A stretch of DNA of 64,000 nucleotides from Bacillota bacterium (GTDB lineage Bacteria > Bacillota > Dethiobacteria > DTU022): NCBI GenBank assembly GCA_012797175.1, contig JAAZPQ010000194.1, positions 294 through 64,293 on the forward strand. Reading direction: 5' to 3'. Each line of letters opens with the position of its first letter. The stretch's first letter is position 1. Below are positions 10,627 to 61,457 of this stretch, piece by piece. The notes beneath the pieces were generated by a model, which saw only the letters and a list, made by a program, of their open reading frames with translations, was not told where the DNA came from and ran no database searches. A program made the position numbers and the translations under genes.

Positions 10627-11109
10627 GTGTTCACCTCCTTCTGGTTATAAAGGAAGATTAAAGAAGATTTATCCTGTGGTTAACCGTGACTTCAGGCAAG
10701 AGAGTATTAATTACAAATGCTATTATTCCCTATGCACAATGATATATATCCGGCCAGAAGCTTAACTTTACCGTGGAATAAAAAGGCCGGCTGCGGGAAA
10801 CCTAAGCTTGAATTTTGGCACAAATGTTCCCTGGAAAGATGTCGACTTCATGATTAGCTTTGCCGGCCGGTTTCATCCGGTCAGAGTTTACCAGGTTCGC
10901 CGCCGCGGGGTGAGACTCTTTTTGCCGAACAGGGGGTGCGCCGTAATGGGCGTAAACAGGTCCTGGAAAATTACAGCTTAGGAACGCGCCGCTGCACGCT
11001 ACCGCCTCCTTTATCGGGGGATGGCTCCGATGAAAGTCCCGTTTATCTCTTATACCGAACCTTATTCAGAGGTAAACGGCAGGTTCACAGTCTAGATTAT
11101 TTCGCGGGG

Positions 11110-12201
11110 GTGTCCGGTTTGTCTGAATTTCGCTGTGATCCTATCTCCGGGCGGCAGGTGATTATTGCTCCGCTGCGTTCCGGGCGGCCCGCGGCTTTTG
11201 CTAAAGCAGGCGGCGGGGACGGCCGCGGCAGCAAACCCGCTTATGTAGAAAACTGTCCTTTCTGTGCTGGCAATGAGCAGATGACGCCGCCGGAGCTTTT
11301 CGCACTGGGACGTAATGGAACGGCACCGGATACAGCAGGCTGGAGAGTCCGGGTAGTGCCGAATAAGTATCCGGCGGTGGAATTAAGAATGGTGGAGCAG
11401 ATCTCGGAGAATATCCCCGGTTACGGAGCTCACGAAGTACTGGTCGAGATCCCGGAACATAACCGCCACCCCGGCAGCTTTCCCCCGCGACAGATGGAGC
11501 TCGTTGTTGAAACCTATTACCGGCGCGGCCGGATGCTGGCCGATTATCCGGATCTGCGTTACCTGCAGATCTTCCGCAATTACCGCCGTGAAGCGGGTGC
11601 TTCGATTGAACATCCTCATTCCCAACTGCTCGCCCTCCCCTTTGTGCCGGTTGTTGTCCGCCGGGAGCTGGAGCGGTCTCAGAGCGCTTACCTTGCCGAG
11701 GGGGCCTGCCCCTTTTGCCAGCTGCTGGAAGAAGAGAGGCGCTTGGCACAGCGAATCATTGTTCAGAGCGATACTTACAGCGCCTTTATTCCTTTTGCTG
11801 CCCGCAGCCCTTTTGAGACCTGGATCCTGCCCCGGAGACACGCAGCTTCATTTTTAGAAACAAGCGCTTCTGAGCGGGCGGACCTGGCAGAGATCCTCGA
11901 AGAGCTGCTCCGGTTAATGGAGCATGCTCTTGGCGATCCGCCCTATAATTACTATCTGCACAGCGCACCCCTGCGCAGTGCGCCGTTGCCCTATTTTCAC
12001 TGGCATATTGAGCTGCTTCCGAAGGTCAGCATCGTTGCGGGGTTTGAAATGGGCAGCGGAGTATTTATCAATATCACCAAGCCTGAAGAAGCAGCCCGGT
12101 TCATTCAGGAGAAAGGAAGAGCCGATTATGAACAATCATGGCGGAAAGATCTACTTTATCCTTGCGCTGCACAATCATCAACCGGTAGGGAACCTGGATG
12201 A
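11110..12201 (+). CDS. Galactose-1-phosphate uridylyltransferase-like (HIT superfamily branch III) enzyme; candidate NDP-glucose phosphorylase
   Basis: Zinc-knuckle CPFCAGNE and active-site HPHSQ (the H-P-H motif of GalT). The ORF track starts at 10936; the conserved N-terminus (SEFRCDPISGRQVIIAP) suggests a GTG or TTG start at 11110-11119. Confidence 0.65.
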   Translation: MSGLSEFRCDPISGRQVIIAPLRSGRPAAFAKAGGGDGRGSKPAYVENCPFCAGNEQMTPPELFALGRNGTAPDTAGWRVRVVPNKYPAVELRMVEQISENIPGYGAHEVLVEIPEHNRHPGSFPPRQMELVVETYYRRGRMLADYPDLRYLQIFRNYRREAGASIEHPHSQLLALPFVPVVVRRELERSQSAYLAEGACPFCQLLEEERRLAQRIIVQSDTYSAFIPFAARSPFETWILPRRHAASFLETSASERADLAEILEELLRLMEHALGDPPYNYYLHSAPLRSAPLPYFHWHIELLPKVSIVAGFEMGSGVFINITKPEEAARFIQEKGRADYEQSWRKDLLYPCAAQSSTGREPG

Positions 12202-14194
12202 GGTTTTCGAGAGAAGTTATCTGCAGACTTACGAGCCGTTCATTGCGGTTCTGGAGCGCTTTTCCGGCATCAGGGTAGCGCTGCATTACTCCGGCAGTCT
12301 TCTGGACTGGCTGGTTGAAAAAAGACCTGATTTTATCAGGCGCCTGAAAAGGCTTGTCGACGGTGGCCGGGTGGAGATTCTCGGGGGAGCCTATTACGAG
12401 CCGATTCTCCCGGCGATCCCGGATGAGGATAAGATTGGCCAGATCTGCCTGTTGACACACCGGCTGCAAGAGCTGTTTGGAGTGGAGCCGCGCGGGATGT
12501 GGCTGGCAGAGCGGGTCTGGGAACCGCACCTGCCCCGTCCAATCAATCAAGCCGGAATTGATTATCTCGCCGTGGACGATACCCATTTTCACGATGTCGG
12601 CTATACGAATCTGGACCACTATTACAGGACTGAAGAAGAGGGTTACCCTCTAGATCTCTTTCCGATCAACGAAGAGCTGCGCTACCTGATCCCCTTCAAG
12701 GCTCCCGAGGAGACAATCTCTTATTTCAAGGAGCACCGGGATGAGCAGCAGCGTCTTTTTGTGCTGGCGGACGACGGTGAAAAATTTGGTGGATGGCCGG
12801 GGACCTACGAGTCGGTCTACGAAAAGGGCTGGCTTGAAGAATTTTTTACTCTTTTACAAGAGCAGGAAGATTGGCTGCAGATGGTTACTTTTGAAGATTA
12901 TCGCCGCCTCTTTTCGCCGTGTGGGCCGGTCTATCTGCCGACGGGGTCCTACCGCGAAATGAAGGAGTGGTCCGGTGGTTTCTGGCGCAACTTTTTTAAC
13001 CGCTATCCTGAAAGTAACCGGATGCACAAAAAGATGCTGGCGGTGCGTAAGCGCTGGGAATCTCTTCCAGAAGGAGAGCCCCGTGAGCAGGCGCAGCGGC
13101 TCCTTTGGGCGGGTCAGTGCAACTGCGCCTACTGGCATGGTGTCTTCGGCGGCCTCTACCTGAACTTTTTACGTGCCGCCGTCTGGCAGAAGTTGTTGCA
13201 GGCTGAGAAGATGATCGATGAGCAGCTGCAGGCGCCGCCGTATCTACTGCTGCAGCGCGGTGATTACGGTTACAGCGGGGCGGAAGAGATCTATATCTCT
13301 ACCGATCGTCTCAGCCTTCTCTTTTCGCCGCAACTCGGCGGTAGCCTGTGGGAGCTTTCATGGAAACCGGCGGCGGTAAACCTTCTCGATACCCTTACCC
13401 GCCGCCCCGAAGCATATCACCAGGAATATCTGGAACAGGCGGAGGCGCCGCGCGGGTCCGGAGAGCAGGCTACTTCGATTCATCACCTGCGGGCGGTTAA
13501 GGAAGAGGGTATCCTGGAGCATCTCTTTTACGATCCCTATCCCCGCGGAGCCTTGATCGAACACTTTTTTGAAGAAGGCGGCTCTCTGGAAGAATTTGAA
13601 AAGGGAAGCATCCGGGAGCAGGGTGATTTTTTAATGCAGCCAGCCGAGGTAGAGTTAGAGCGGCTGCCGGATCCCGGTGAGGGGGAAGGGGTGCAGATAA
13701 CTTTTCAGCGGGAGGGGCGGCTTAAAGAAAACTTACCCCTGCTTCTGAAAAAAATAGTGACCGTCTACGCGGGGAAAGATCGCTTTCAAATAGAGTATCA
13801 CCTGGTCAACCGGGGTAAAGATGACGTGGTGCTTTGCTTCGGGATAGAGTTTAACCTTGCTTTTCTTTCCGGGTCCGACGATGACCGTTACTACGTTATC
13901 CCTGGGCGCGAGCTGGAGGATCGAAGAGTAGGTTCCCGCGGGACTGAAGAAGCGGTGCCAGAACTTTCGCTGGTTGATCGTCGGCGCAATCTCAGCCTAG
14001 CTCTTTGCTGGAGTCGGCCAGCCTTACTCTGGCGAATGCCGGTGGAGGCGATCTCGCTTTCAGAGGGCGGCCTGGAACGTTCGTACCAGCAGTCGCTTCT
14101 CTTGCCGAGTTGGGATTTTTACCTGGCCCCCGGTGAAAGCGGCACCGTCAATTTGCATTTGCAATTTTCCGGGGCTGCTGAAAGGCAGCCATAG
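12128..14194 (+). CDS. Glycoside hydrolase family 57, alpha-amylase/4-alpha-glucanotransferase-like (large form, about 690 aa)
   Basis: MNNHGGKIYFILALHNHQPVGN is the GH57 N-terminus, with a long C-terminal extension. The ORF track begins at 11924, but ATG 12128 has the RBS GGAGAAAGGAAG. It overlaps the tail of the GalT-like ORF by about 74 nt. Confidence 0.7.
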   Translation: MNNHGGKIYFILALHNHQPVGNLDEVFERSYLQTYEPFIAVLERFSGIRVALHYSGSLLDWLVEKRPDFIRRLKRLVDGGRVEILGGAYYEPILPAIPDEDKIGQICLLTHRLQELFGVEPRGMWLAERVWEPHLPRPINQAGIDYLAVDDTHFHDVGYTNLDHYYRTEEEGYPLDLFPINEELRYLIPFKAPEETISYFKEHRDEQQRLFVLADDGEKFGGWPGTYESVYEKGWLEEFFTLLQEQEDWLQMVTFEDYRRLFSPCGPVYLPTGSYREMKEWSGGFWRNFFNRYPESNRMHKKMLAVRKRWESLPEGEPREQAQRLLWAGQCNCAYWHGVFGGLYLNFLRAAVWQKLLQAEKMIDEQLQAPPYLLLQRGDYGYSGAEEIYISTDRLSLLFSPQLGGSLWELSWKPAAVNLLDTLTRRPEAYHQEYLEQAEAPRGSGEQATSIHHLRAVKEEGILEHLFYDPYPRGALIEHFFEEGGSLEEFEKGSIREQGDFLMQPAEVELERLPDPGEGEGVQITFQREGRLKENLPLLLKKIVTVYAGKDRFQIEYHLVNRGKDDVVLCFGIEFNLAFLSGSDDDRYYVIPGRELEDRRVGSRGTEEAVPELSLVDRRRNLSLALCWSRPALLWRMPVEAISLSEGGLERSYQQSLLLPSWDFYLAPGESGTVNLHLQFSGAAERQP

Positions 14195-14223: not shown

Positions 14224-15942
14224 ATGAGCGAACAGCTGCTTTATGTAGCTTTTGTCTGGAACCAGCATCAGCCTTTTTACAGGGATGCGGTTTCTGGGGA
14301 GCTAATCATGCCCTGGGTGCGGCTCCATGCGTGCAAAGATTACTATCAGATGGCGGCGATCCTGGAGAGCTACCCGAAGGTGCGCCAGACCTTTAACCTG
14401 ACTCCGTCCCTGCTGGAGCAGTTTGAATGTTACCTGGCCGGGGAAGAAGATTATTATCAAAAAGTAAACAAGCCGGCGGAGAAACTTAACGATTCGGAGA
14501 AGCAGTATCTGCTGCATCACTATTTTGATATTCATTGGGATAAGGTCATCCGGCAGTATCCTCGCTACCAGGAACTGCTCGAGCTCCAGGGATGGAGCAG
14601 GGAACCCGAGGCGGTCCGTGCGGTCATGGAGCGCTATCGTCCGCAGGATTACCGTGATCTGCAGGTCTGGTTCAACCTGGCCTGGATAGACCCTCAAATT
14701 CGGCAATCCGATCCTCTCTTAAGCGGACTTGTTGAAAAGGGACGTAATTTTACCGAAGCAGAGCGCCGCTCGGTTATGAAGCGACAGCGTGATCTGGTAG
14801 GCGGAGTTGTCCCCCTGCACCGGCGCCTGCAGGAACGGGGTCAGATTGAGATCATGACCACCCCTTATTATCACCCGATTATCCCGTTGTTGATTGACAG
14901 CTGCAGTGCCCTACGGGCCTCTCCCGGGCTACCGCTGCCGCGCCGCTTTCAATACCCGCAGGATGCTTGCGAACAGCTGGCCATGGCCAGGGCCCAGTAC
15001 CAAAGGCTTTTTGGCAAACTTCCGCAAGGAATCTGGCCTTCGGAGATGGCCGTCAGCCCGGAAACAGTAGCTCTCTTTGCGACCTATGGCTTTGACTGGT
15101 CGATCAGCGACGAGCAGATCCTGGCCCGCTCGTTGAATGCCGAGATTATCCGCGATGGTTATGGCCACGTTTTAAACGGCGATCTGCTCTACCAGCCTTA
15201 CCGTGTCCGTGGAGCCGGGGGGGAGATTGCCATGGTCTTTCGGGATCACCATCTCTCCAACCGGATCGGGTTCGAATACCAGCATTTTCGTCCCGAAGAT
15301 GCGGCCGCCGATCTGGTGCACCGCCTGCAAAAAATTCGGGAGAACCTTTCCTGGTCCCCAGGCAATCACCTGGTAACCCTTTCTTTGGACGGGGAGAACG
15401 CCTGGGAATGGTACCAGGGAGACAAGGGCCCCTTTTTACACAGCCTTTACCGTCGCTTAAGCGAAGAGCCGCTTCTGAGATGCTGCACGGTCAGCGATTA
15501 CCTGGCGGCCAACCCGCCGCAGAGGATTATCGACAACCTGTTTACCGGATCATGGGTTGATCACAACCTGACCCGCTGGATCGGCACGGAAAATAAGAAC
15601 CTGCTCTGGGATTACCTGCTCGAGGCCCGTGAAGCGGTGGAGCACTATCGCCAGAGTAATTCCTGTCAGCCGGAGAGGTTAAAGGAGGCCCTGCACTATA
15701 TCTACATCGCCGAAGGCAGTGATTTTCCCTGGTGGATTGACAGTATGCCCTACTACCTGGCCGCTCCTTTTGAGGCTCTCTTTCGTCGACATCTTGTTGC
15801 CGTCTACCGCTCCTTGAAGAGAGCTGTCCCGGACCACCTTCGCCATCCCTTGATCCATCCTCAACCCGGAGAGAGTGCTTTTTACAATGATCCCCTTGCT
15901 GGACCGATCTCCATGGTTCCGTCCAATTCTGACCCGGAATAA
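14224..15942 (+). CDS. Glycoside hydrolase family 57 protein (AmyC-like, 572 aa)
   Basis: LYVAFVWNQHQPFYRD GH57 motif; tight spacing after the preceding GH57 gene. Confidence 0.65.
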   Translation: MSEQLLYVAFVWNQHQPFYRDAVSGELIMPWVRLHACKDYYQMAAILESYPKVRQTFNLTPSLLEQFECYLAGEEDYYQKVNKPAEKLNDSEKQYLLHHYFDIHWDKVIRQYPRYQELLELQGWSREPEAVRAVMERYRPQDYRDLQVWFNLAWIDPQIRQSDPLLSGLVEKGRNFTEAERRSVMKRQRDLVGGVVPLHRRLQERGQIEIMTTPYYHPIIPLLIDSCSALRASPGLPLPRRFQYPQDACEQLAMARAQYQRLFGKLPQGIWPSEMAVSPETVALFATYGFDWSISDEQILARSLNAEIIRDGYGHVLNGDLLYQPYRVRGAGGEIAMVFRDHHLSNRIGFEYQHFRPEDAAADLVHRLQKIRENLSWSPGNHLVTLSLDGENAWEWYQGDKGPFLHSLYRRLSEEPLLRCCTVSDYLAANPPQRIIDNLFTGSWVDHNLTRWIGTENKNLLWDYLLEAREAVEHYRQSNSCQPERLKEALHYIYIAEGSDFPWWIDSMPYYLAAPFEALFRRHLVAVYRSLKRAVPDHLRHPLIHPQPGESAFYNDPLAGPISMVPSNSDPE

Positions 15943-16082
15943 TCTACCTCGCTTTTCTTGCCGAAAGGCTCTTTTCAATAATTTTTCCCATGCCTGTTTA
16001 AATATAGCGCGCTACCTTTTAGTTTTTATGGTAATATCGAAGTAATATGTTGTTGTGGCGGGGAGGAGCTTTTTGCGTGTAC

Positions 16083-22245: not shown

Positions 22246-23283
22246 ATGTCTTCTCAACCGGAGCAGAACGCGGGTTTTGTACCTCTTTACAATGTCAGAA
22301 CCGATCTGGCTCTTGAAGCGCAGGAGATTGTTCAGCAACAGATCGCGGCGGAGATACACGGTGTGGTTTCGGAAAACCTTCAGGAAGACGGTATTGCAAT
22401 TAACCGTCTTGAAATCGAAACCGAACAGGCGGCACAGCAGTTGGGTAAAAGCCGGGGCCGCTATCTCACCTTTGAAGTTCCCGGACTACGGCGTAAAGAT
22501 GCCGCCCTCCAAGACCGCGTTTCTGAAATCCTGGCTCGTGAGCTGGTACGCTTTTTGGAACTCCCGTCCGATCTCCAGCAGGCCGTTCTGGTAGTCGGTT
22601 TGGGGAACTGGAATGTGACCCCGGATTCTCTTGGCCCGAAGGTAATTGAAGATCTTTTGGTGACGCGGCACGCGATGATGATGGACCAAAAGATTTTAGG
22701 AGAAGGTTTCCGGGCGGTCTGTGCGCTCTCTCCGGGTGTTCTAGGGACTACCGGAATTGAAACAGGAGAGATCATTGCCGCCCTTGTCCAACGGGTTAAA
22801 CCCGGCCTTGTAATCGTAATCGATGCCCTGGCTGCCCGCCGCCTGGAGCGGCTCCATACGACCATCCAGGTGACCGATTCGGGGATCAGCCCCGGTTCGG
22901 GAGTAGGTAACAACCGCCTCGGGATCAACCGCCAGACAATCGGGGTCCCGGTAGTGGCGATCGGTGTCCCAACGGTCGTGGATGCCTCGACGATTGCCGG
23001 CGAAGCCTTTGATGCCTTGGCGGAGCATTTCAAAAAAGAGCCCCGGGGGTTTGCTCTCTCCAATGCGCTTAAAGATTTAGATTGGGATCAGCGTCGCCTT
23101 CTCATCACCGAGGTGCTCGAGCCTTACGCGGGCGGGCGCCTCATGGTCACGCCAAAGGAAACTGATGCTTTCGTCGAGGACATGGCTTATATCATATCGG
23201 GAGGGCTTAATTCAGCCCTTCACCCTCGCGTCCATAGTGAAAGCAGCGAAAAATACCTCGCGGCAGCAATGTGGCGGTTATAA
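22246..23283 (+). CDS. gpr: Germination protease Gpr, the small acid-soluble spore protein (SASP)-degrading endopeptidase
   Basis: VRTDLALE...VVGLGNWNVTPDSLGP...IDALAAR...SDSGISPGSGVGN is near-identical in its motifs to Bacillus Gpr. The rpsT-gpr neighbourhood is conserved. Confidence 0.9.
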   Translation: MSSQPEQNAGFVPLYNVRTDLALEAQEIVQQQIAAEIHGVVSENLQEDGIAINRLEIETEQAAQQLGKSRGRYLTFEVPGLRRKDAALQDRVSEILARELVRFLELPSDLQQAVLVVGLGNWNVTPDSLGPKVIEDLLVTRHAMMMDQKILGEGFRAVCALSPGVLGTTGIETGEIIAALVQRVKPGLVIVIDALAARRLERLHTTIQVTDSGISPGSGVGNNRLGINRQTIGVPVVAIGVPTVVDASTIAGEAFDALAEHFKKEPRGFALSNALKDLDWDQRRLLITEVLEPYAGGRLMVTPKETDAFVEDMAYIISGGLNSALHPRVHSESSEKYLAAAMWRL

Positions 23284-33063: not shown

Positions 33064-33202
33064 TAAAGCAAACGGCGGGCCCTGTGATAATTAAAAAGCA
33101 AGCCGGCGGACCCCCTTGCCCTGCCTCTTTCTCCACAAGGAGGGGCCCTGGAAGGAAGGTAGGGGCAGAAGGCCTCCCTTCCCGGTGACGGAGGTGCAGA
33201 AG

Positions 33203-34129
33203 ATGAAGAGAAAAGTAAAAGTGAGGGTGCCGGCTACCAGCGCCAACCTCGGTCCGGGGTTTGACAGTATCGGCCTGGCGCTGCAGATATACAATGAGTT
33301 GACCCTATCGGTAGCGGCGGGGCTGCAACCCACAGTTGAAGTTGTGGGAGAGGGAGCGGCATCGCTACCGCGGGACGGGAGCCATCTTTCGCTAAGGGCT
33401 GCCGACTCACTCTTTAAAGCCGCCGGTTTGAAGCCTCCAACCTGGAATCTGCACCAGTCTAACCGCATTCCGCCCGGCTCTGGGCTTGGCTCGAGCGCTG
33501 CTGCTATCGTCGGAGGGCTGTACGCCGCGAATACCTTTTTGCCGGATCCGTTTAGCCGGGAGCGGCTGTTAGAGCTGGCTATAGAGCTAGAGGGGCATCC
33601 GGATAACGTTGCGCCGGCGCTCTATGGGGGGATGGTCATTAGCTGCCGTGGCTGCGGCCGGTGGCATACTTTTCACGACGCGCCTTTCCCTGGATTACGT
33701 TTATTGCTGGCCCTGCCCGAGTTGACACTTTCGACCAGTGAGGCACGCCGTGTCTTACCGGAGCAGGTCCCGCGAAGCGACGCCGTGTTTAATACGGGCC
33801 GTGCCGCCGCTCTGACCGCTGCCCTGCTCACTGGAAATGAGGAGCCTTTAAGCTGGGCTACGGAAGACCGTCTGCACCAACCTTATCGCTGCCCTTTAAT
33901 TCCCGGGGCTGAAGCGGCGCTGGCAGCAGCCCGCCGTGCCGGGGCAAGCGGTGCGGCGATTAGCGGTGCCGGCCCCTCGATTATCGCCTTCTGGTTCGAG
34001 CGCGGGGAGGCTGACCTCAGGGCAGGGAATGTTGCCGCCGCCCTGGAGGATGCTTTTACCGGTGCCGGGATTCGCTGCCGGGTTATCTCTACTACCGTCG
34101 ATAATAACGGTGTTACCCTGCTCATTTAA
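33203..34129 (+). CDS. thrB: Homoserine kinase
   Basis: VKVRVPATSANLGPGFDSIGLAL plus the GHMP motif PPGSGLGSSAA. ATG 33203 follows GGAGGTG. Confidence 0.85.
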   Translation: MKRKVKVRVPATSANLGPGFDSIGLALQIYNELTLSVAAGLQPTVEVVGEGAASLPRDGSHLSLRAADSLFKAAGLKPPTWNLHQSNRIPPGSGLGSSAAAIVGGLYAANTFLPDPFSRERLLELAIELEGHPDNVAPALYGGMVISCRGCGRWHTFHDAPFPGLRLLLALPELTLSTSEARRVLPEQVPRSDAVFNTGRAAALTAALLTGNEEPLSWATEDRLHQPYRCPLIPGAEAALAAARRAGASGAAISGAGPSIIAFWFERGEADLRAGNVAAALEDAFTGAGIRCRVISTTVDNNGVTLLI

Positions 34130-56903: not shown

Positions 56904-56940
56904 TCTTATAAGCAATTAAATTTTGAAACGGAGGTTGCCC

Positions 56941-58371
56941 GTGGCTGATTTACACCCTATCCTGCGCGAGTTGCCTGCGGTGGACCGGTTGCTGAAGGAA
57001 CCGGCTCTTGGTGAATTGCTCGAGCGGTTACCGCGCCGGTTGGTTCTGGCCGCGGCCCAGGAAACACTGCAGTCTTATCGACAGAAAATTTACGCCAGCA
57101 GCAAAACCGGCCAACCTGTTACCGGCCTGGACCTTTCTCCCGCTGTGCTGGCCCGTGAAGCGGCGGCGCTGGCCCTGAGCCAGTCTACGCCGAGCCTGAG
57201 GCCGGTCATAAATGCTACCGGGGTTGTTCTCCATACCAACCTGGGGAGAGCACCCCTGGCCGCGGCGGCGGCGGAAGCGGTAGCTGGAATCATGGAGCAT
57301 TACTGCAACCTGGAGATCGACCTGGAAGAAGGCGTGCGCAGTTCACGGCAGGCCCATCTGGAGGGGCTGCTCTGTGATCTGACCGGAGCCGAAGCAGCGG
57401 TAGTGGTGAATAACAATGCCGCTGCCGTTTTTCTGCTTTTGAACAGCTGTGCGACTGGCAAAGAGGTGATTGTTTCGCGGGGGCAGCTGGTGGAGATCGG
57501 CGGCTCCTTCAGGCTTCCCGAGGTGATGGCGGCCAGCGGTGCCCGCCTCGTGGAGGTAGGGACAACGAATAAGACCTACATACGTGATTACGAGATGGCG
57601 ATTAGTGACGATACCGTAGCCCTGATGAAGGTTCATCCCAGCAATTATCACCTGGTTGGCTTTACCACTTCGGTTGAAACCGCTGACTTGGCCTCCCTGG
57701 CGCATGACCGTAATCTACTGGCCATCGAGGACCTGGGCAGCGGTCTCCTCTTTGATCTAACCAGGTACGGGCTTCCCCCGGAACCGCGCGTTCAAAATAG
57801 TATTGCCGCTGGGATAGACCTGGTTGCCTTTAGCGGGGATAAACTGCTTGGAGGGCCGCAGGCAGGGATCATTGTCGGGCGGCATGAGCTTATCCAGAGG
57901 ATCCGCAGTAACCAGTTGGCCCGGATGTTACGGGTGGATAAACTGACAGTGGCCGCTCTTGAAGCCACCCTGCGTCTTTATCTGGAAGAAGAGAAGGCGC
58001 TTCAAGAAATACCGGTCTGGCGAGCGCTGACGATGCCACTTTCCCAGCTGCTGGAGCGGGTCGAAACCCTGGCTGTACTACTTCAAGATTACTTTGGTAA
58101 AGAGGGGGTTATCCTCTGGGAAGGTAGCTCCCGGGTCGGCGGCGGCAGCCTGCCTACGGCGGAGCTGCCGACAGTACTTCTTTCTTTACAGGTGCCCCAC
58201 CTGGAATCATCCGAGCTGGCCAGGCGCCTGCGCTGCGGCGACCCGCCGGTGATGGTGCGGCTGCAGCAGGAGAGGTTGCTGCTGGATCTGCGCACGGTTA
58301 ATCCGGAGCAGGACGGATTGCTTCTTAAAGCCATTCTTGCCGCCGTGGGGATGGACGGTCCTGAGAAATGA
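56941..58371 (+). CDS. selA: L-seryl-tRNA(Sec) selenium transferase
   Basis: PAVDRLL N-terminus and the PLP-lysine motif SGDKLLGGPQAG. GTG 56941 follows GGAGG; the ORF track starts at 56923. Confidence 0.85.
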   Translation: MADLHPILRELPAVDRLLKEPALGELLERLPRRLVLAAAQETLQSYRQKIYASSKTGQPVTGLDLSPAVLAREAAALALSQSTPSLRPVINATGVVLHTNLGRAPLAAAAAEAVAGIMEHYCNLEIDLEEGVRSSRQAHLEGLLCDLTGAEAAVVVNNNAAAVFLLLNSCATGKEVIVSRGQLVEIGGSFRLPEVMAASGARLVEVGTTNKTYIRDYEMAISDDTVALMKVHPSNYHLVGFTTSVETADLASLAHDRNLLAIEDLGSGLLFDLTRYGLPPEPRVQNSIAAGIDLVAFSGDKLLGGPQAGIIVGRHELIQRIRSNQLARMLRVDKLTVAALEATLRLYLEEEKALQEIPVWRALTMPLSQLLERVETLAVLLQDYFGKEGVILWEGSSRVGGGSLPTAELPTVLLSLQVPHLESSELARRLRCGDPPVMVRLQQERLLLDLRTVNPEQDGLLLKAILAAVGMDGPEK

Positions 58372-58432
58372 TTGTGCTTCTAACTTTTATTTTATCCGGC
58401 TTACGGGAAACGAACATGAAAGGCTGATTGTT

Positions 58433-60352
58433 TTGGAACATCTTATTATCGGGACTGCCGGGCATGTCGATCATGGCAAAACCGTTTTGATCAGGGCACT
58501 TACCGGGGTCGATACCGACCGTCTGCGGGAAGAAAAGAAGCGCGGCATCTCCATTGATCTCGGGTTTGCCCCCCTTGAGCTTCCTGGCGGCCGCCTGGCC
58601 GGGATTGTCGATGTCCCGGGCCACGAGCGTTTTATCCATAATATGCTTGCCGGGGCCGCCGGGATGGACCTGGTTCTGCTGGTGGTTGATGCTACCGAAG
58701 GGGTTATGCCGCAAACGAAGGAGCATCTGCAGATATTACAGCTTTTAGGATTGGAAAAAGGGATCGTCGTCATTACCAAGACTGACCTGGTTGACGAAGA
58801 GTGGCAGGAACTTATCCAGGAGGAGATCTCCGCGGAGCTGGAAGGGACCTTTCTTGCCGATGCTCCTATCCACGCCGTCTCTGCTTTTACCGGCGAAGGT
58901 ATTGACGAACTGAAAGAGCGGATCAGTTCGGCTACCCTTGAGCTGTCTCCCCGGGATTCGTCGGGGCCGCTGCGGTTGCCGGTGGATCGTTCTTTTACTA
59001 TCGCCGGCTTTGGTACCGTGATTACCGGAACACTTTTCCGCGGGAGCGTCCGGGAAGGCGATAGAGTTGAGATTGTTCCATCCGGCCTGGAGGCGCGCGT
59101 GCGCAACATTCAGGTTCATGAGCGTAACCGGCAAGAAGCCCGGGCCGGACAGCGGGTGGCGTTAAACCTGGCCGGAATTGAAAAGGCAGAAGTCCGGCGC
59201 GGCAACGTTATCGCCTCGCCCGGCTACTACCAACCGACAAAGCTTCTCGACGCTTCGCTTTCGCTGCTGCCAGGAGCTCCCCGGCCGCTTAAAAATTTGG
59301 ATCCGGTTCACTTATTTTTGGGAACCGCCCGGGTGGTGGCGCGCCTGTTGCTGCTTGATTGCGATGAGCTCAGGCCGGGTGAAAAATGCTTCGTTCAGTG
59401 CCGCCTTAACCACCCCCTGGTAGCAGACCGGGCCGACCGTTTTATTATCCGTTCATACTCACCGATGACCACGATTGGGGGAGGGCGGGTGCTCGACCCC
59501 GCTCCGGCACGGCATCGCCGTTTTCGCCGGGCCTCTTTTGCACACCTTGAAGATATGGAGCAGGACCCGGAGGCGGGAGGAGACGAGGCTTTCATCTACC
59601 AGAAACTATCCGGCCTGCTTATCGCCGACCCGGCTCACCTGGCCCGGGAGACTCGCCTGGACGAGAAGCGGCTGCATGATATCCTTAAGCGGCTAACCCA
59701 AAAAGGGGTTGTCGAGAAGCTTGGCCAAAGCTATCTTACCCGGAAGTGCTTTGAAGAATGGGAACGCCGACTGTTGCACGAAGTAGAAGAATATCATCGT
59801 GATCATCCCTTGCTACCGGGTATCTCCCGGGCACGGTTAAAGGGAGCCTTGCCTCGTGAACTGGGCTTGCGGGAATATGACCTTTTTCTAGAGCGGCTAC
59901 AGGAGCAGGGGCAGGTCGTGCTGCAAGGAGATCTGGTCAGCCGGAAAGGTTTTACTCCCAGGCCTTCTACGCAAGAGCAGGCGCAGCTTGCACGTTTAAC
60001 GGAAGTGTATGCCGGGGCCTTGTTCCAGCCTCCCACGGTTAAGGAGGCACTCTCCCGGGCGGGGATTGAAAGCCAGCAGCCGGAAGACTATTACAGCTAC
60101 CTGGTAAACCGCGGCCAGCTGGTGAAAATAAATGACGAGCTTTATTTTCACCGGGAGGCCTACGATGAAGCGGTTGAGCTGCTGCGCGCTCATTTCACTA
60201 CTGCCGATACAATTACCCTGGCCCAGTTTAGAGACCTTACCGGCAGTTCGCGGAAGATCGTGCAGCCGTTACTCGAGCATTTCGACTATTTAAAGCTGAC
60301 CCGCCGCGTCGGCGATCACCGCGTCCCCGTGAAACTGTTAAACCATGGCTAG
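58433..60352 (+). CDS. selB: Selenocysteine-specific translation elongation factor SelB
   Basis: GTAGHVDHGKT (G1) and DVPGHE (G3) motifs, with a long C-terminal winged-helix extension. It overlaps the selA stop. The start is probably TTG 58433 (MEHLIIGTAGHVDHGKT). Confidence 0.85.
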   Translation: MEHLIIGTAGHVDHGKTVLIRALTGVDTDRLREEKKRGISIDLGFAPLELPGGRLAGIVDVPGHERFIHNMLAGAAGMDLVLLVVDATEGVMPQTKEHLQILQLLGLEKGIVVITKTDLVDEEWQELIQEEISAELEGTFLADAPIHAVSAFTGEGIDELKERISSATLELSPRDSSGPLRLPVDRSFTIAGFGTVITGTLFRGSVREGDRVEIVPSGLEARVRNIQVHERNRQEARAGQRVALNLAGIEKAEVRRGNVIASPGYYQPTKLLDASLSLLPGAPRPLKNLDPVHLFLGTARVVARLLLLDCDELRPGEKCFVQCRLNHPLVADRADRFIIRSYSPMTTIGGGRVLDPAPARHRRFRRASFAHLEDMEQDPEAGGDEAFIYQKLSGLLIADPAHLARETRLDEKRLHDILKRLTQKGVVEKLGQSYLTRKCFEEWERRLLHEVEEYHRDHPLLPGISRARLKGALPRELGLREYDLFLERLQEQGQVVLQGDLVSRKGFTPRPSTQEQAQLARLTEVYAGALFQPPTVKEALSRAGIESQQPEDYYSYLVNRGQLVKINDELYFHREAYDEAVELLRAHFTTADTITLAQFRDLTGSSRKIVQPLLEHFDYLKLTRRVGDHRVPVKLLNHG

Positions 60353-60407: not shown

Positions 60408-61457
60408 ATGAAAAAGGAAAAGATCCGGCTTACATCGATGACCTCAAGCGCTGGGTGAGCGGCAAAAATTGGGCCTGAAGCCCTGGCACAGGTTCTGTGC
60501 TGTTTACCGTCTGTCGACGATCCGGCTTATCTAAACCGGCATCAGCACTATGCTGATGCCGGAGTCTACCGCCTCTCTGAAGAGATGGCCTTGGTCCAGA
60601 CTATTGATTTTTTCACTCCGGTGGTTGACGATCCCTATCTTTTCGGGCAAATTGCGGCGGCCAATGCTCTCAGCGATCTTTACACCATGGGGGCAAAGCC
60701 ACTGACGGCTTTAAACCTGGTCTGCTTTCCATCTGAGAAACAGCCTTTGAATATATTGGCGGAGATTTTGCGTGGCGGATTTGATAAAATTAGGGAATCC
60801 GGGGCGGTCTTGATTGGGGGTCACAGCGTTGAAGATGACGAACCGAAGTACGGGCTGGCCGCGACCGGGGTGGTTGACCCGCGGCAGATGATTACCAGCG
60901 CCGGTGCTCGTCCCGGCGATCGGCTCTTTTTAACTAAACCCCTCGGCAGCGGCATTATCACCACCGCGATAAAGGGCGACCAGCTCACCGTTCAGGAGGC
61001 CGGGGAGGTCTTGCAGGGAATGGCTGCTCTCAATGCTGCTGCTGCGGAGGCAATGGTTGAGGCCGGGGCCTCTGCGGCCACCGATATTACTGGTTTTGGC
61101 CTGCTTGGCCATCTACATGAGATGCTTGTCGCCAGCGGCGCCGGAGCTAAAATATATCGTAAAGCGGTTCCTGTTTACCACGGGACCGGGGAGATGGCGG
61201 CGAAAGGACTGATACCCGGGGGAGCCTACCGTAATCTGAGCTATTTTCAAGGCTCGGTTTACTGGGCGGGAGAGGAGCAGAAAAAGGAGGAATGCCTCTT
61301 AATCTTTTTTGATCCTCAGACTTCGGGGGGCCTATTGATTGCCGTGCCGCCAGAGCGCGCTGCAGCTTTGAGCGCAGCTTTGGAAAAGCGGAATCTCAGG
61401 AAAGATTATATCGGGGAGATTACCGCGGACGCCCCGGGGAAAATAACCGTATCTTGA
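60408..61457 (+). CDS. selD: Selenide, water dikinase SelD, with an in-frame UGA (selenocysteine) at 60456-60458
   Basis: ATG 60408 follows GGGAGGTG. Translation reads MKKEKIRLTSMTSSAG-U-AAKIGPEALAQVL, aligning with E. coli SelD [21 protein letters not shown] at the Cys/Sec17 position. Downstream TIDFFTPVVDDPYLFGQIAAANALSDLYTMGAKP matches SelD strongly. The ORF track reports only the part after the TGA (60585..61457). Confidence 0.8.

Follow-up and report, generated by a model that had tools for sequence, protein, structure and literature searches.

Within a 64,000-nucleotide (nt) stretch of DNA from a Bacillota bacterium (contig JAAZPQ010000194.1; the whole stretch is referred to as the window), a glycogen-type locus carries a gene resembling galactose-1-phosphate uridylyltransferase (GalT). 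The protein it encodes is predicted to be a nucleoside diphosphate (NDP)-glucose phosphorylase, most plausibly one acting on ADP-glucose, translated as 360 amino acids (aa) from a TTG codon at 11119 and encoded by the first gene of a GalT-like/GH57/GH57 operon (GH57, glycoside hydrolase family 57); this is considered a reasonably probable reading of the locus, well short of certainty. An earlier note on this DNA had preferred an ADP-glucose phosphorylase type over a GalT, and as far as computation reaches the preference holds, with the plant enzyme At5g18200 the closest characterised protein both by sequence and by predicted fold. The window protein is best classed as a bacterial, as yet uncharacterised representative of an enzyme type already known; no paper was found on the bacterial clade or on its linkage to glgA and GH57 genes.

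The mechanical open reading frame (ORF) occupies 10936-12201 of the plus strand, begins with GTG, and encodes 421 aa; the gene as delimited here, from its domains, homologues, and structural model, occupies 11119..12201 on the same strand. The H-P-H active site and Cys-x-x-Cys motif described previously can be read directly from the sequence: EHPHSQ lies at ORF residues 225-230 (histidine codons 11611-11613 and 11617-11619), and there are two CPFC motifs, one N-terminal (residues 107-110, nt 11254-11265) and one C-terminal (residues 258-261, nt 11707-11718). Both GalT half-domains, PF01087 and PF02744, exceed their Pfam gathering scores in the 421-aa ORF, and the top Pfam match is DUF4921 (47 bits, partial, C-terminal half only). 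In the numbering of the 360-aa protein, the predicted zinc site consists of C46, C49, H105, and H165, the predicted nucleophile of HPHSQ is H167 (His228 of the long ORF) with Q169 following, and the second CxxC corresponds to C197/C200, accompanied by H241 and H294/H296. No variation is seen across 49 homologues in HPHSQ (ORF residues 226-230), C46, or H165; C49 and H105 each occur in at least 90% of them. The motif aligns to H184/H186/Q188 of At5g18200, of which the 2H39 chain has glycine at the second histidine position. With both half-domains, H-x-H-x-Q, and a CxxC-plus-two-histidine site, the protein has, at the level of sequence, the features of class I in the GalT branch of the HIT superfamily.

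Searches of solved structures place At5g18200 first. In a phmmer search of the PDB it is the top match (1Z84/2H39; 215 bits, E 1e-62), followed by the Pyrobaculum GalT at 147 bits and, at 76-81 bits, by the GalTs of E. coli (81) and human. An AlphaFold model of the GalT-like protein built on 49 homologues has a predicted local distance difference test (pLDDT) value of 89 and a predicted template modelling (pTM) score of 0.88. Foldseek matches this model to all solved class I members (TMt 0.77-0.90), with six At5g18200 chains taking ranks 1-6 (E 2e-32, TMt 0.89-0.90), ahead of the Pyrobaculum enzyme (E 2e-25) and of the GalTs from E. coli and human (about 1e-23). The phylogeny that the earlier note had proposed as a check was computed as a neighbor-joining tree, in which At5g18200 and the bacterial clade containing the window protein group together in 98 of 100 bootstraps, with the characterised GalTs of Pyrobaculum and E. 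coli outside. Sequence and model together place the GalT-like protein in class I of the GalT branch, within a sub-clade that it shares with At5g18200.

At5g18200 (PDB 1Z84, 1ZWJ, 2H39) has the same two-lobed HIT fold as the window protein, with approximately 37% identity over about 330 residues, and both have the N-terminal CxxC, H-x-H-S-Q, a second CxxC in the C-terminal half, and a GFE[IM]G[ST]G loop on the sugar side. The plant enzyme is reportedly without GalT activity, a finding attributed to McCoy et al. in 2006. It is cytosolic and without operon context, whereas the window gene is bacterial, lies in an operon with GH57 genes in a glycogen locus, starts with TTG, and encodes an unconstrained tail of 25-30 residues that arises from a gene overlap. 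Two papers (PMC6329318, PMC4136846) cite At5g18200 as having ADP-glucose phosphorylase activity (EC 2.7.7.36), the Km for ADP-glucose being about 7 µM. The GalT of Pyrobaculum aerophilum (PaGalT; 6K5Z/6K9Z) also has the class I GalT fold and HPHSQ, but most of the N-terminal segment is missing, the alignment begins at query residue 69, and its single CxxC (CPFC, chain residues ~31-34) lies immediately ahead of the conserved core. Ohshida et al. reportedly described it in 2020 as a true uridylyltransferase. The E. coli and human GalTs (EC 2.7.7.12; 1HXP, 5IN3) have the superfamily, the ping-pong nucleotidyl-histidine chemistry, and the CxxC plus two-histidine zinc site in common with the window protein; however, they are only about 24% identical to it, the E. 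coli enzyme has an iron site in place of the second CxxC, and Leloir genes sit with galK and galE, which were not found at the window locus. The name PaGalT for the 6K5Z/6K9Z enzyme is that used in bioRxiv 10.64898/2026.09.13.751320. Many homologues of the window protein are labelled both DUF4921 and DUF4931, families of uncharacterised GalT-like proteins, of which the solved Bacillus cereus BCE0241 (4QVU) is a distant match (E 4e-7, TMq 0.45).

The cluster had been described as having no galactose genes, and a survey of the larger ORFs across the window (at least 150 aa up to 24.5 kb and at least 180 aa beyond, with obvious shadow ORFs left out) shows no galactose-pathway gene, nor does a galactokinase signature or GalE N-terminal motif occur in any of its frames. 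The sole GHMP kinase found in the window, at 33116-34129, follows homoserine dehydrogenase. The earlier note had named galK or galE in an operon with the gene as a finding that would speak for a GalT; neither turned up in the window and 87 related loci, together 1.2 Mb searched for the GalK signature and the GalE N-terminal motif. The GalT-like family is widespread, with at least 600 loci matched, and neighbours were counted in 72 analysable loci from at least 8 phyla. Genes of GlgA type are the most frequent neighbours, found within three genes in 26 of the 72, and in 22 of those 26 such a gene is immediately 3' on the same strand. The GlgA-linked loci include members of Nitrospirota, Nitrospinota, Zixibacteria, Elusimicrobia, and Ignavibacteria as well as Brocadia, Moorella, and Desulfovirgula, and two sampled GlgA neighbours score 570-580 bits on TIGR02095, the "ADP-glucose type" model. 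Less frequent neighbours are a GH57 glucanotransferase (11/72), a second GH57 enzyme (8), branching enzyme (6), and GlgC (5); overall, 35 loci have a glucan gene within three genes. Closer to the window, the whole locus is syntenic in relatives with 62-76% identity.

By homology, the second histidine of HPHSQ, His167, would attack the alpha-phosphate of NDP-glucose, most probably ADP-glucose; glucose-1-phosphate would leave as a covalent nucleoside monophosphate-enzyme formed, and orthophosphate (Pi) would then accept the nucleotidyl group to yield NDP. The Cys2His2 zinc site (C46, C49, H105, H165) would hold the active-site loop. In the cell, the enzyme may return NDP-glucose to the glucose-1-phosphate (Glc-1-P) pool and so control or recycle the donor for glucan synthesis. 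ADP is the most likely nucleotide because of the At5g18200 clade and the GlgA linkage. An attempt to call nucleotide specificity from sequence was abandoned, as the loops on the uridine and adenine side (xNxYP, NxxxxxGxS, and HxHxQ) are alike in At5g18200, PaGalT, and the window protein.

Several observations weigh against the prediction, either against a phosphorylase as such or against ADP as its nucleotide. The tree was built by a distance method, has E. coli GalT as its root, and includes only three characterised references; the literature search yielded no assayed enzyme of the bacterial clade; and 37 of the 72 loci have no glucan gene within three genes. By raw identity the window protein is as close to PaGalT (38% over 270 positions) as to At5g18200 (37%), and no residue pattern was found that separates adenine from uracil or guanine preference. 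The window protein falls below both NCBIfam equivalog cut-offs, with 92.7 against 102.1 for TIGR00209 and 117.3 against 448 for NF008724; however, glgA-linked relatives with 41-44% identity pass the TIGR00209 galT cut-off, so a score under the threshold is weak evidence in the case of the window protein, and its use as proof that the protein is not a GalT was accordingly given less weight. Two of these relatives, in Moorella (L028, 8025-9056, 135 bits on TIGR00209) and in a member of Nitrospirota (L080, 8073-9071, 129 bits), are directly 5' of bona fide glgA genes and carry the database name galactose-1-phosphate uridylyltransferase. A genuine Leloir UDP-glucose:galactose-1-phosphate uridylyltransferase that merely adjoins glucan genes would account for the two Pfam half-domains and HPHxQ, for the similarity to a Pyrobaculum enzyme with reported GalT activity, and for relatives that pass TIGR00209 under a GalT name. 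It would not account for the failure to find galK, galE, or galM in the operon or in the larger ORFs across the window, or galK and galE motifs in the related loci, nor for glgA and GH57 linkage that is conserved across phyla, nor for the nearer position of At5g18200 by score, fold, and tree; together with the scores below both equivalog cut-offs, these points make a Leloir enzyme improbable, and the GalT naming of the glgA-adjoining clade is probably a systematic mis-naming.

The remaining points against the prediction concern the nucleotide. The glgA-like gene formerly adjacent in the window is dead, the synthase that remains belongs to glycosyltransferase family 4 (GT4), and the nucleotidyltransferase of the locus scores best on GDP-mannose-type models; with a GT4 synthase and a GDP-mannose-like nucleotidyltransferase, the nucleotide could be GDP or UDP instead of ADP. 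The enzyme might then be a phosphorylase for GDP- or UDP-glucose that exerts quality control on the product of a promiscuous fusion of nucleotidyltransferase and phosphoglucomutase. The nucleotidyltransferase domain of this fusion scores 243 bits against mannose-1-phosphate guanylyltransferase-type models, which is below their cut-off, and 105 against glgC; the surviving synthase is not of the ADP-glucose-type GT5 family; and the GalT branch of HIT proteins also includes the GDP-hexose phosphorylases VTC2 and GDPGP1. Nevertheless, ADP-glucose is the substrate of the sole enzyme characterised in the immediate clade, an ADP-glucose-type GlgA is the neighbour met most often in the family, and the ancestor of the locus had a glgA-like gene directly 5' of the GalT-like gene, and for these reasons a GDP- or UDP-glucose enzyme is regarded as unlikely, although it retains a minor share of the probability.

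The direction of the reaction also needs to be considered. Since the ADP-glucose phosphorylase reaction is reversible, the enzyme could in principle form ADP-glucose and Pi from ADP and Glc-1-P, an ATP-saving bypass of GlgC that would feed glycogen synthase. The operon with glgA in 22 loci and the presence of GlgC nearby in only 5 of 72 are in keeping with such a role, but a nucleotidyltransferase is already encoded in the locus, and the equilibrium constant, reportedly 5-40 in the work of McCoy et al. from 2006, favours phosphorolysis. Coupled to the synthase, the reverse route amounts to glycogen phosphorylase running backwards and needs a Pi/Glc-1-P ratio below about 3.6, far from cellular ratios. 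The cellular ratio thus disfavours the reverse route and favours phosphorolysis, and synthesis by this enzyme appears very improbable.

If the phosphorylase prediction is true, many bacterial genes called "galactose-1-phosphate uridylyltransferase" are NDP-glucose phosphorylases that go with glycogen synthase and with GH57 enzymes, metabolic reconstructions of how activated glucose is controlled and recycled would change, and a step missing from present schemes of prokaryotic alpha-glucan metabolism would be added. A search of the literature found nothing relevant on a bacterial ADP-glucose phosphorylase, on GalT in GH57 or glgA clusters, or on DUF4921. In a 2024 Chemical Reviews article on the field the term "histidine triad" is never used, and uridylyltransferases appear twice, in other contexts only, one of the two mentions being in the section on UDP-glucose pyrophosphorylase. 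A more far-reaching proposal, considered doubtful, is that the family is a widespread unrecognised component of glycogen metabolism, found beside glgA in at least 8 phyla and mislabelled as GalT, with one of two system roles. Both are compatible with the findings but unsupported. With a Glc-1-P nucleotidyltransferase, the enzyme could close a cycle that converts ATP and Pi to ADP and pyrophosphate (PPi), which, if it occurred, would provide PPi for PPi-dependent glycolysis in anaerobes and a shortcut of "glycogen cycling". Alternatively, with glycogen synthase in reverse (glycogen + ADP → ADP-glucose), it could allow phosphorolytic breakdown without a GT35 glycogen phosphorylase.

The start of the gene differs from that of the mechanical ORF, and annotation gains on three counts: the TTG start at 11119 (360 instead of 421 aa), the recognition of a glgA-like relic upstream, and the demonstration that the downstream overlap is incidental. 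The conserved N-terminus (M/L-SEFRxDPI) begins at ORF residue 62, nt 11119, so the frame is open for 183 nt on its 5' side, or 174 nt if counted to the in-frame GTG at 11110, in agreement with the roughly 175 nt given by the earlier note. Nearly all of 19 aligned homologues begin with M-[SP]-E-[FIL]-R-x-D-P-I where the window ORF has Leu62 (TTG 11119); the few called with longer N-termini have no sequence common to their extensions. Comparison of the DNA with relatives identifies a Shine-Dalgarno sequence, GGGGGTG, at 11106..11112 on the plus strand, 6 nt ahead of the TTG, and TTG behind GGGGGTG or GGAGGTG at a spacing of 6-7 nt is kept in five relatives (L001, L084, L085, L086, and L087). By sequence comparison, then, the start of the GalT-like gene is TTG 11119.

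The upstream extension of the mechanical ORF (10936..11118, plus strand) is non-coding: by homologue alignment it is not conserved as protein, and by blastn and tblastn it overlaps the remains of a glgA-like gene. In the closest relative, L087, whose GalT-like protein is 76% identical, an intact 475-aa glgA-like gene (269 bits on TIGR02095) lies between the DUF4912 gene and the GalT-like gene. Comparison of window positions 10627-11130 with the corresponding stretch of L087 gives four colinear blastn blocks (E 1e-31, 3e-14, 3e-21, and 2e-3). The first is a control block considered below. The second (10835..10924, plus strand) matches codons ~58-87 of the L087 gene with 76% nt identity (E 3e-14), and the third (10937..11066, plus strand) matches codons ~433-475 at the 3' end of that gene with 75% (E 3e-21). 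The last, at 11096-11130 (E 2e-3), is the region of the Shine-Dalgarno sequence and TTG. Two deletions between blocks, of about 206 nt and 1036 nt, have removed approximately 1.2 kb of the ancestral gene, and a 1-nt insertion in the second relic piece has caused a frameshift and a TAG stop. At the protein level, RRNGRKQVLENY, which opens the 10936 ORF, matches RRSGRRHVLENY of the L087 synthase in tblastn; the upstream frame is open because the first 14 codons of this relic piece share the frame of the GalT-like ORF. Decay has gone further in other relatives, with only the last 17-29 codons left in L001 and none detectable in L084-L086. The upstream stretch, which had been taken as a possible leader or alternative start, is instead a decayed glgA-like pseudogene, deleted and frameshifted, that now forms 5' untranslated region.

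Translation from GTG 10936, with a 61-residue N-terminal leader on a 421-aa product, draws on the open frame, on the identical 421-aa product (P0001) called on other assemblies, and on the few relatives likewise called with long N-termini. Against it, the extensions have no conserved sequence in common, the DNA there is homologous to the frameshifted 3' end of a glgA-like gene, the Shine-Dalgarno sequence and TTG at 11106-11121 are kept in five relatives, and directly 5' of the GTG there is no Shine-Dalgarno-like purine run (by eye from the sequence, unscored); such a start is extremely improbable. The idea of a regulatory leader was also dropped, as an Rfam scan of 10000-12400 at E<=1 found no riboswitch or leader, the only match being a chance one to a snoRNA inside the DUF4912 gene. 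A terminator-like hairpin with a T-run does occur at 10896-10914, inside the relic and 5' of the GalT-like start; it could be fortuitous, or it could dampen transcription that reads through from the conserved promoter block.

That block, at 10698..10818 with no strand assigned, lies between the DUF4912 gene and the present GalT-like, formerly glgA-like/GalT-like, operon, and was recognised by blastn and comparison with relatives as a conserved divergent promoter or control region. It is 84% identical to L087 (blastn, E 1e-31), occurs once in the window, and contains motifs invariant in seven loci, the window and the intergenic regions of L001, L084-L087, and L006: GCTATTAT.CCC, GATATAT, G.ATAAAA, and GGG.AAC.TA. 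A sigma-70 scan of the intergenic region gave no plus-strand promoter match. The block may resemble forespore sigma-F/G promoters, and if it is of this type it would fit a spore-former that makes glycogen in sporulation. A gene for the Gpr protease is present in the window at 22246-23283.

At its 3' end the GalT-like gene runs into the next gene, a GH57 enzyme that starts with ATG at 12128 behind the purine-rich ribosome-binding stretch AGGAGAAAGGAAG. As the GalT-like stop ends at 12201, the overlap (12128..12201, plus strand, delimited by frame comparison and the model) is exactly 74 nt in a different frame, which makes precise the approximate figure reported before. In relatives the GalT-like gene runs beyond the ATG of the GH57 gene by 83, 71, 71, 17, or 1 nt, and in three more distant Bacillota it stops before that ATG (overlap 0). 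Over the 19 codons that are shared, the GH57 frame (GKIYFILALHNHQPVGNL) is nearly invariant, whereas 10 of 19 positions vary in the tail read in the GalT frame, since the changes sit at third codon positions of the GH57 gene. The tail has pLDDT values of 50-61 in the AlphaFold model. The frame analysis, variable overlap length, and low pLDDT led to rejection of a functional C-terminal extension: the 25-30 extra residues are unconstrained read-on, the overlap exists because a stop is missing in the GalT frame, and it is incidental. The overlap implies that translation of the GalT-like gene and the first GH57 gene is tight and probably coupled.

The GalT-like gene is best read as leading a three-gene operon in a glycogen-type locus. 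The second gene (12128..14194, plus strand; Pfam Glyco_hydro_57 + AmyA-A_glucT_m + AmyA-gluTrfs_C) is a GH57 enzyme of AmyA/4-alpha-glucanotransferase type, the third (14224..15942, plus strand; Pfam) is a second GH57 enzyme, and a terminator-like hairpin and T-run found by a hairpin scan just past it, at 15951..15969 on the plus strand, is the likely end of the operon. Upstream on the minus strand are a DUF4912 gene (10108..10626, Pfam), divergent from the operon, and a GH57 glycogen branching enzyme (8442..10073, Glyco_hydro_57 + BE_C by Pfam and NCBIfam). These two, with the DUF4912 gene first, are paired in the window, and the pairing recurs in all close relatives and in L075; no described function of DUF4912 was found in the searchable literature. 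Further upstream on the plus strand, a GT4 glycosyltransferase (3137..4417) that is nearest to the NCBIfam "glgA_Coryne" subfamily, below its cut-off, is the putative glucan synthase that the locus retains. It is followed by the 828-aa fusion of a sugar-1-phosphate nucleotidyltransferase with phosphoglucomutase/phosphomannomutase (4512..6998, plus strand, domain search), presumed to be the source of NDP-glucose; relatives have the fusion in their glucan loci as well. What separates the fusion from the branching enzyme varies: a PGA_cap-family gene in the window (7033-8277, minus strand, domain search) and in L084, nothing in L085 and L086, and a gene for an extracytoplasmic function (ECF) sigma factor with an unknown gene in L001 and L003 (5736-7033).

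A sensor kinase with GAF-PAS-HisKA-HATPase architecture occurs one to three genes 3' of the GalT-like gene in 24 of the 72 loci (L009-L083), for example at 9144-10862 of L047, and in loci that have glgA, this gene is usually situated between the GalT-like gene and the kinase. This arrangement suggests a regulatory partner, one that is absent from the window. Far from the glucan genes, selA (56923-58371) and selB (58337-60352) are directly 5' of a selD-like ORF at 60435-61457 (AIRS/AIRS_C), which runs upstream through an in-frame TGA at 60456-60458 in the motif "SAG*AAKIGPEAL"; this TGA is probably a selenocysteine codon.

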